Under the pieces are notes generated by a model that saw only the letters and a list, made by a program, of their open reading frames with translations, had not been told where the DNA came from and ran no database searches. The position numbers and the translations under genes were made by a program. Below, piece after piece: positions 6,573 to 6,703 of a stretch of DNA of 10,753 nucleotides (position 1 is the stretch's first letter; the number at the start of each line of letters is the position of its first letter). The DNA is taken from assembly GCA_964419615.1 (NCBI GenBank), contig CAYQPU010000039.1, positions 1 to 10,753 of the forward strand. Reading direction: 5' to 3'. This DNA comes from an uncultured Methanosarcinales archaeon. Its GTDB lineage: Archaea; Nanobdellota; Nanobdellia; Woesearchaeales; JAGVZT01.

Positions 6573-6586
6573 TTTATATATGAAAA

Positions 6587-6614
6587 AGGGCGTATAATGT
6601 AACTTATACGAAGT
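6587..6614. other. Putative tyrosine-recombinase recombination site (dif/loxP-like, 11-6-11)
   Basis: AGGGCGTATAA-TGTAAC-TTATACGAAGT, with a perfect 7-bp inverted core CGTATAA/TTATACG around a 6-bp spacer. 19/28 identical to E. coli dif. 6584-6617 is 26/34 identical to loxP. It lies 23 nt from the recombinase start codon. Confidence 0.75.
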
Positions 6615-6703
6615 AATATATATATTTATTGTGTTTTAAAGCAGTTTTACCACTAATTTTAATTATAAAATATTATTAATGAAAATAATTCTTAATCAGT
6701 AAA

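Follow-up and report, generated by a model that had tools for sequence, protein, structure and literature searches.

A probable XerA/dif module with a loxP-like site in a marine DPANN archaeon

The closest described relatives of the locus reported here are the archaeal XerA/dif systems of P. abyssi, T. kodakarensis and T. acidophilum, which consist of a single XerA-family recombinase and a 28-bp site present in one copy per chromosome. Archaeal dif sites are most strongly conserved in their TAA-N6-TTA core (PMC11840125). [quoted passage not shown] Among bacteria, XerS/difSL (streptococci and lactococci) and XerH/difH (Helicobacter and Campylobacter) likewise place the recombinase beside its own site, whose two arms are asymmetric, but both depend on FtsK, which archaea lack (PMC8371274). 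Cre/loxP of phage P1 is another one-protein system. In integrons (IntI/attI), of which archaeal examples exist (PMC9668308), a tyrosine recombinase gene has its site directly upstream and is flanked by divergent neighbouring genes.

We analysed a 10,753-nt stretch of DNA (hereafter the window), for which an earlier note had proposed a loxP/dif-like site directly upstream of an archaeal Xer-type recombinase gene. Our analysis makes it probable that positions 6587–6614 are the dif-type site of the adjacent XerA and serve chromosome-dimer resolution in a marine DPANN (Woese/Pacearchaeota-type) archaeon. The features discussed below are as follows.

5709–6563, minus strand: xerA, encoding a 284-aa tyrosine recombinase (269 aa from the ATG at 6518), assigned by Pfam, NCBIfam and solved relatives
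6567–6572, minus strand: Shine–Dalgarno-like AGGTGA, 3 nt before the ATG at 6563, read from the sequence
6573–6581, plus strand: another TATA-like element, TTTATATAT, on the xerA side of the site, in loci L005–L008 only
6584–6617, plus strand: the identical site in the 34-bp loxP register (13-8-13), with 26/34 positions as in loxP
6587–6614, no strand assigned: putative dif-type site of 28 bp, unique in the genome, conserved and single-copy in relatives, with identities to known dif sites
6587–6597: xerA-proximal arm AGGGCGTATAA, the outer 3 nt of which deviate from the order consensus
6598–6603: asymmetric spacer TGTAAC
6604–6614: distal arm TTATACGAAGT, in agreement with the order consensus
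6617–6628, minus strand: TATA-box-like element TAAATATATATA on the xerA strand, 4 nt beyond the core of the distal arm; a candidate promoter for xerA
6704–7576, plus strand: divergent 290-aa gene (orf290) in the variable slot beyond dif; a neighbour, with no implied membership in the module

The organism can be placed among DPANN archaea, as the earlier note had supposed, from a PAC2 gene in the window (identified by Pfam) and from its named relatives, which are Pace-, Woese- and Nanoarchaeota MAGs among the matches listed (mostly bacterial Xer-like genes). The window DNA occurs in marine and seawater metagenomes. The locus resembles the characterised archaeal systems in having one XerA-family recombinase and one 28-bp site, and those of Sulfolobales and haloarchaea in that the site adjoins xerA. 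It differs from the characterised archaeal XerA/dif pairs in carrying the arm TTCGTATAA instead of TGATATAA and in belonging to a DPANN lineage. Its similarity to XerS/difSL lies in the layout and in the asymmetry of the two arms; difSL is a 31-bp site with an 11-bp central region compared with the 6-bp spacer here, and the protein is not XerS.

Judged by its family matches, the recombinase is a member of the archaeal XerA equivalog family. It passed the NCBIfam model NF040815 (recomb_XerA_Arch) with 250.3 bits against a cut-off of 220, and Pfam identified the Phage_integrase domain together with SAM_4, a SAM-like N-terminal domain. The nearest solved relatives are the XerA proteins of P. abyssi (7.2e-51) and T. 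acidophilum, and the catalytic residues R142, K167, H231, R234, H257 and Y266 do not vary among the 15 orthologue sequences aligned. The protein failed the XerS model NF003462 (75.5 bits versus a cut-off of 267) and matched XerH only distantly (2e-16). The integron-integrase model TIGR02249 was the second-best family match but also failed (215.6 versus a cut-off of 265); unlike in integrons, the match is split in two, as would be expected if the IntI-specific domain were missing. A second integron model, NF011946, gave 142 against a cut-off of 435, and the length of 269–284 aa compares with integron model lengths of 315–337. The range in length reflects an uncertain start codon: despite the good AGGTGA before 6563, every orthologue starts at the position that corresponds to Met16 (ATG at 6518), and the first 15 residues of the 284-aa form are not conserved. 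The distance from the ATG at 6563 to the 28-mer is 23 nt, as had been claimed; the true start may instead be the ATG at 6518, in which case the sequence places the site about 68 nt away.

The plus-strand letters at 6584–6617 are AAAAGGGCGTATA-ATGTAACT-TATACGAAGTAAT, exactly as the earlier note gave them, and recomputation returned its identities to loxP (26/34) and E. coli dif (19/28) as well as its perfect 7-bp inverted core, CGTATAA/TTATACG at 6591–6610. In the 28-bp register the site is identical to loxP at 22/28 positions and to T. kodakarensis dif at 17/28; the reference for the latter is the site verified by ChIP-seq, with its sequence taken from PMC11840125. Two 11-bp inverted arms around a 6-bp spacer, with TAA-N6-TTA at the centre, give the 28-bp geometry. 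The hairpin that the site could form is weak (-3.6 kcal/mol), which fits a protein-binding site and not an RNA structure, and a search of the window for Rfam families gave zero matches.

The site is unique. The 27-mer, with up to three mismatches, was found once in the window and never in 200 shuffles, upholding the earlier claim that the window holds no second copy, and a genome-wide scan for further copies showed the site core to be single-copy across the organism's own 1.48-Mb genome (a 99% complete draft). With a matrix built from relatives only, the site at 6584–6617 scored 31.6 bits and the runner-up in the genome 14.7; the matrix scan of window and genome yielded no second full site or convincing half-site. 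A half-site candidate at 5629–5645 was rejected at 10.8 bits, below a chance match in a coding region (12.0 bits). Also set aside was a 30-nt inverted repeat (5585–5614 / 7642–7671) flanking xerA and orf290, which by a rough estimate is at about chance level between AT-rich spacers. An independent metagenome contig (L225) crosses the site at 100% identity. Another, the independent JGI contig L226, equals window 4373–6594 and stops inside the site, 3 nt into the proximal arm; this end could be due to chance or to an assembly branch at the site.

Among about 3 million genome positions the site is the top loxP-like 34-mer, the next unrelated one reaching 22/34. Sites at 14 related loci match loxP at 21–27 of 34 positions, and the order consensus TTCGTATAATGTATATTATACGAA is identical to the loxP core at 22/24. 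E. coli dif itself agrees with loxP at 18/28 positions through the ATAATGTAT...TAT core, so the extra likeness lies in the 4–5 outer arm bases TTCGT/ACGAA. In the window site these bases are found on the distal arm only, which matches loxP at 12/13 positions; the proximal arm, where GGG stands in place of the CTT of loxP, matches at 9/13. The locus shares with Cre/loxP this DNA identity, the 6-bp interval between expected cleavage points and the one-protein design. In contrast to loxP, however, the palindrome lies one base further inwards and thereby leaves a 6-bp rather than an 8-bp spacer, and the site would be a chromosomal housekeeping site and not that of a phage plasmid. As read from the sequences, the loxP likeness is real and order-wide, at the DNA level only. 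The earlier suggestion of a specificity unusually close to Cre/lox holds for the DNA (26/34 here and 22/24 order-wide) and not for the protein, which is XerA-like and matched no Cre chain in the PDB at E<=1.

The same figures for DNA identity are what a genuine system of the Cre/lox type, or a loxP from a cloning vector left in the assembly as an artefact, would have in its favour; we give either of these practically no credence. The first is contradicted at the protein level, where XerA chains were matched at 7e-51 and no Cre chain at E<=1. The second is contradicted by eight differences from loxP and by natural variation of the site among 54 genomes, and the site is carried by two independent metagenome contigs. 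Much of the resemblance, moreover, is the core common to E. coli dif and loxP.

Conservation among relatives connects the site to xerA. Of 14 orthologue loci with upstream sequence, 12 carry the canonical TTCGTATAA-N6-TTATACGAA and one more (G022) a spacer variant, so that the CGTATAA-N6-TTATACG-type motif expected by the earlier note upstream of homologous recombinases was indeed found there, and order-wide at 31/41 sites. In the variant (L015, G022:C10), also upstream of xerA, the same arms enclose a spacer that measures 7 bp (9 bp if counted in the usual register): TTCGTATAAG-CCCAAAC-CTTATGCGAA. The spacer is TGTAnn, in fixed orientation relative to xerA, in most orthologue loci, and in several relatives it is TGTACC, which is the spacer of T. 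kodakarensis dif. The arms co-vary, with CGCG.../...CGCG in locus L010 and GCATAA/TTATGC in L013 and L022; such symmetric changes are as expected if two copies of one protein bind both arms.

We surveyed 301 genomes, sampled evenly from this order, with a 22-base pattern, TTCGTATAA-TGTAnn-TTATACGAA, allowing up to three mismatches. The pattern was present in 56 genomes (54 of them published), exactly once in each; the reversed pattern, used as a control on the same sample, had matches in 9 genomes. Sites were then matched manually to xerA positions, leaving out the unpublished G278 and G213; nothing claimed here depends on an unpublished genome. Thirty-one of 41 sites lie no more than 1.5 kb upstream of an orthologous xerA; in 20 cases the distance to the protein match is about 100 nt or less, and in 11 it is 260–1430 nt. 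Another 9–10 sites are unlinked, being on another contig or far from xerA. A further 13 sites belong to genomes without a xerA match at E<=1e-65. The motif is thus conserved at orthologues and single-copy both here and in 54 published relatives, which agrees with the earlier description of the site as the cognate site of a one-protein module.

The linked sites have a characteristic promoter-like context. On the xerA strand, 10 of 13 orthologue loci carry a TTTATATA-like box 4–7 nt outside the site core; the box is absent in three loci with the site more than 1 kb from xerA, and it is absent at the unlinked site of G163 and present at the linked site of G091. Archaeal transcription starts about 22–27 nt after the TATA box. 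The predicted start would accordingly fall inside the proximal arm, where bound XerA would occlude the candidate promoter. We infer that dif sits inside the candidate xerA promoter, between TATA box and transcription start, an arrangement (with a fixed 4-nt spacing) that sets the locus apart from known archaeal XerA/dif systems. The TATA-like flank may, on the other hand, be intrinsic to archaeal dif sites and not a promoter, since Thermococcales dif sites have conserved AT-rich flanks (PMC2958812). The second TATA-like element, confined to the family to which this genome belongs, could be a promoter reading through the site into the divergent gene at 6704.

In most orthologue loci the palindrome is separated from a conserved TATA box by 4 nt and from the start codon by 23 nt, which is also what would be seen if it were purely regulatory, an operator within the promoter of xerA to which XerA or some other factor binds without recombination. 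We regard this as very improbable. In 9–10 genomes the site has been retained away from xerA, in a single copy with perfect arms; in G163 it lies 283 kb from the gene, on a GC-skew switch and with no TATA box. The asymmetric TGTA spacer and the 11-6-11 geometry, moreover, are dif features (PMC11840125). That the site is unique and persists without an adjacent xerA points to recombination there, and not just to an operator function.

The chromosomal position of the site was examined in relatives through GC skew, using 160–240 kb around each site for G091 and G163. In G163, assembled as one contig of 1,540,096 bp, the site is at 513,223, which is 147 degrees from the sole orc1/cdc6; the skew, averaging +0.165 in the 120 kb that precede the site, drops to a mean of -0.027 beyond it, and the cumulative curve peaks 7 kb from the site. 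In the complete genome G023 the cumulative skew minimum (761 kb, detrended) coincides with orc1/cdc6 at 765 kb, which identifies the switch in G163 as terminus-type. The complete genome G091 (909,956 bp) has its site adjoining xerA, 161 degrees from orc1/cdc6, with no local skew switch. In G023 the best matrix match genome-wide reached 16.5 bits (the next 11.2) and lies 1.2 kb upstream of xerA; this candidate site is the most degenerate one and is located 92 degrees from the origin, off the skew extremes. Local skew near the site is terminus-type in G013 and G037, of the opposite type in G003 and absent in G024 and G025. The position of the site relative to the terminus is inconsistent among relatives and not uniformly terminal; in this inconsistency among three complete relatives the group appears unlike the known archaeal XerA/dif systems. 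At the unlinked G163 site (G163:C1:513223, L232/L233) the palindrome reaches 18 perfect bp per arm, GCAAATTATTTCGTATAA / TTATACGAAATAATTTGC.

The neighbourhood of the site changes between genera. The gene beyond it, orf290, gave zero matches to Pfam or NCBIfam, has a GC content of 0.40 versus about 0.30 in its surroundings and is followed by a 400-nt AT-rich spacer. It was found in a same-genus relative only, other genera (G004, G024 and G025) holding other ORFs in this slot, and in G002, G003 and G013 a gene is inserted between the site and xerA. In three other families, too, PAC2 flanks xerA on the side where the site lies; a small ORF and an Ada-type zinc-finger gene are common to the window's own family. 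No mobile-element genes were found beside the site.

A slot whose contents differ by genus, insertions between site and xerA, the deviating GC content of orf290 and the end of contig L226 inside the site would all suit a platform for gene capture or integration, with an attI-like or IMEX-type XerA target, orf290 as cargo and the site as an element junction. Such a platform is nevertheless unlikely. Neither a second full site nor a convincing half-site was found, the best half-site scoring below the chance level given above, and 54 genomes have one site each. The protein falls under the integron-integrase cut-off with its two-piece match, and there is no attC-type array beside the recombinase, to judge from the lack of any repeated site or half-site in the window and of any Rfam match. 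In viral contigs the 22-base consensus had no match, and its 18-base core had four, with no XerA nearby, which is by estimate about the number expected by chance. Turnover of genes is unremarkable between genera at 50–60% protein identity. The PAC2 flank conserved across families, together with the absence of a second site or half-site and of mobile-element genes, favours vertical inheritance of a chromosomal module whose neighbouring genes turn over in the ordinary way, although the site may now and then serve as a target for insertion. Of the two possibilities raised by the earlier note, a chromosomal dif or one att junction, the evidence thus favours dif and speaks against att.

On the preferred reading, a chromosomal dif recombined by the adjacent XerA, the module would operate as the characterised XerA/dif systems do. 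Each 11-bp arm would be bound by one XerA monomer, the two sites of a chromosome dimer would come together in a tetrameric synapse, Tyr266 would cleave at the edges of the 6-bp spacer TGTAAC, and two rounds of strand exchange would convert the dimer into monomers, each chromosome having one site. Bound XerA would probably also limit its own transcription, as the site lies between the TATA box and the xerA start here and in most relatives. Binding, cleavage, dimer resolution and autoregulation by XerA are all assigned here by inference. A more far-reaching reading would combine the observations: the dif consensus would reflect recognition rules near those of Cre, such that a mesophilic archaeal XerA recombines loxP-like sites or Cre these natural ones; XerA synthesis would be coupled to occupancy of the site; and the variable slot would mark occasional XerA-mediated capture of foreign DNA. 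We consider this combination doubtful.

Our literature search found no description linking a XerA/dif module to Woesearchaeota or DPANN. The kind of system is already known. With this module, DPANN archaea of the Woese/Pacearchaeota type gain a concrete and testable candidate for dimer resolution, composed of one small recombinase and one 28-bp site, and natural site variants with co-varying arms are available across the order. The relatives also provide a comparative set in which the same kind of site is either embedded in the candidate promoter of xerA or stands by itself at a terminus defined by skew, a difference that bears on how dif is positioned in organisms lacking FtsK. The closeness to loxP makes this XerA a reasonable candidate for recombinase engineering, as a lead only.

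The XerA model is also passed by another protein of the organism's genome, encoded at C37:10637-11480 (L003) at a contig end and 47% identical to that of the window, so either paralogue could be the dimer resolver. Two XerA-like genes are present in many of 40 relatives, forming an orthologue group of 48–68% identity and a paralogue group of 37–47%; many genes of the latter group lie less than 1 kb from contig ends. Directly before the ATG of the C37 paralogue is a 57-bp nested palindrome, AACTTCTTATTT..AAACATTT-ATATATC-AAATGT..AAATAAGAAGTT, and just downstream of the gene is a GC-rich stretch of about 150 nt in a genome otherwise of 30% GC, for which Rfam gave zero matches. The paralogues of several relatives have a distinct conserved palindrome, TATTAAGCGTA-N7-TACGCTTAATA, about 50–90 nt upstream.

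Metagenome contigs also revealed strain variation along the window. Marine contigs diverge from it at 5751 (three runs) and at 8095 (three runs), with window 7771–7849 also listed, and in a variant present in all four runs 8120–8422 is replaced by one and the same 24 nt. Strains thus differ across the xerA–dif–orf290 block and within the zinc-finger gene. No joint at the site itself was listed in the comparison of metagenome contigs with the window (depth 2–5x, short pieces), and joints at 1673>7587, 4369>7748 and 8644>8897 were disregarded, having sides shorter than 30 nt. At the other end of the window are three PMT_2-type glycosyltransferase genes (2–1144, 2198–3766 and 3841–5397), which adjoin a radical-SAM/SPASM gene at 1123–2208. 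An exact look-up of the neighbouring PMT_2 protein gave no recorded entry; the two complete PMT_2 genes are tandem paralogues sharing a 300-nt repeat of 67% identity.
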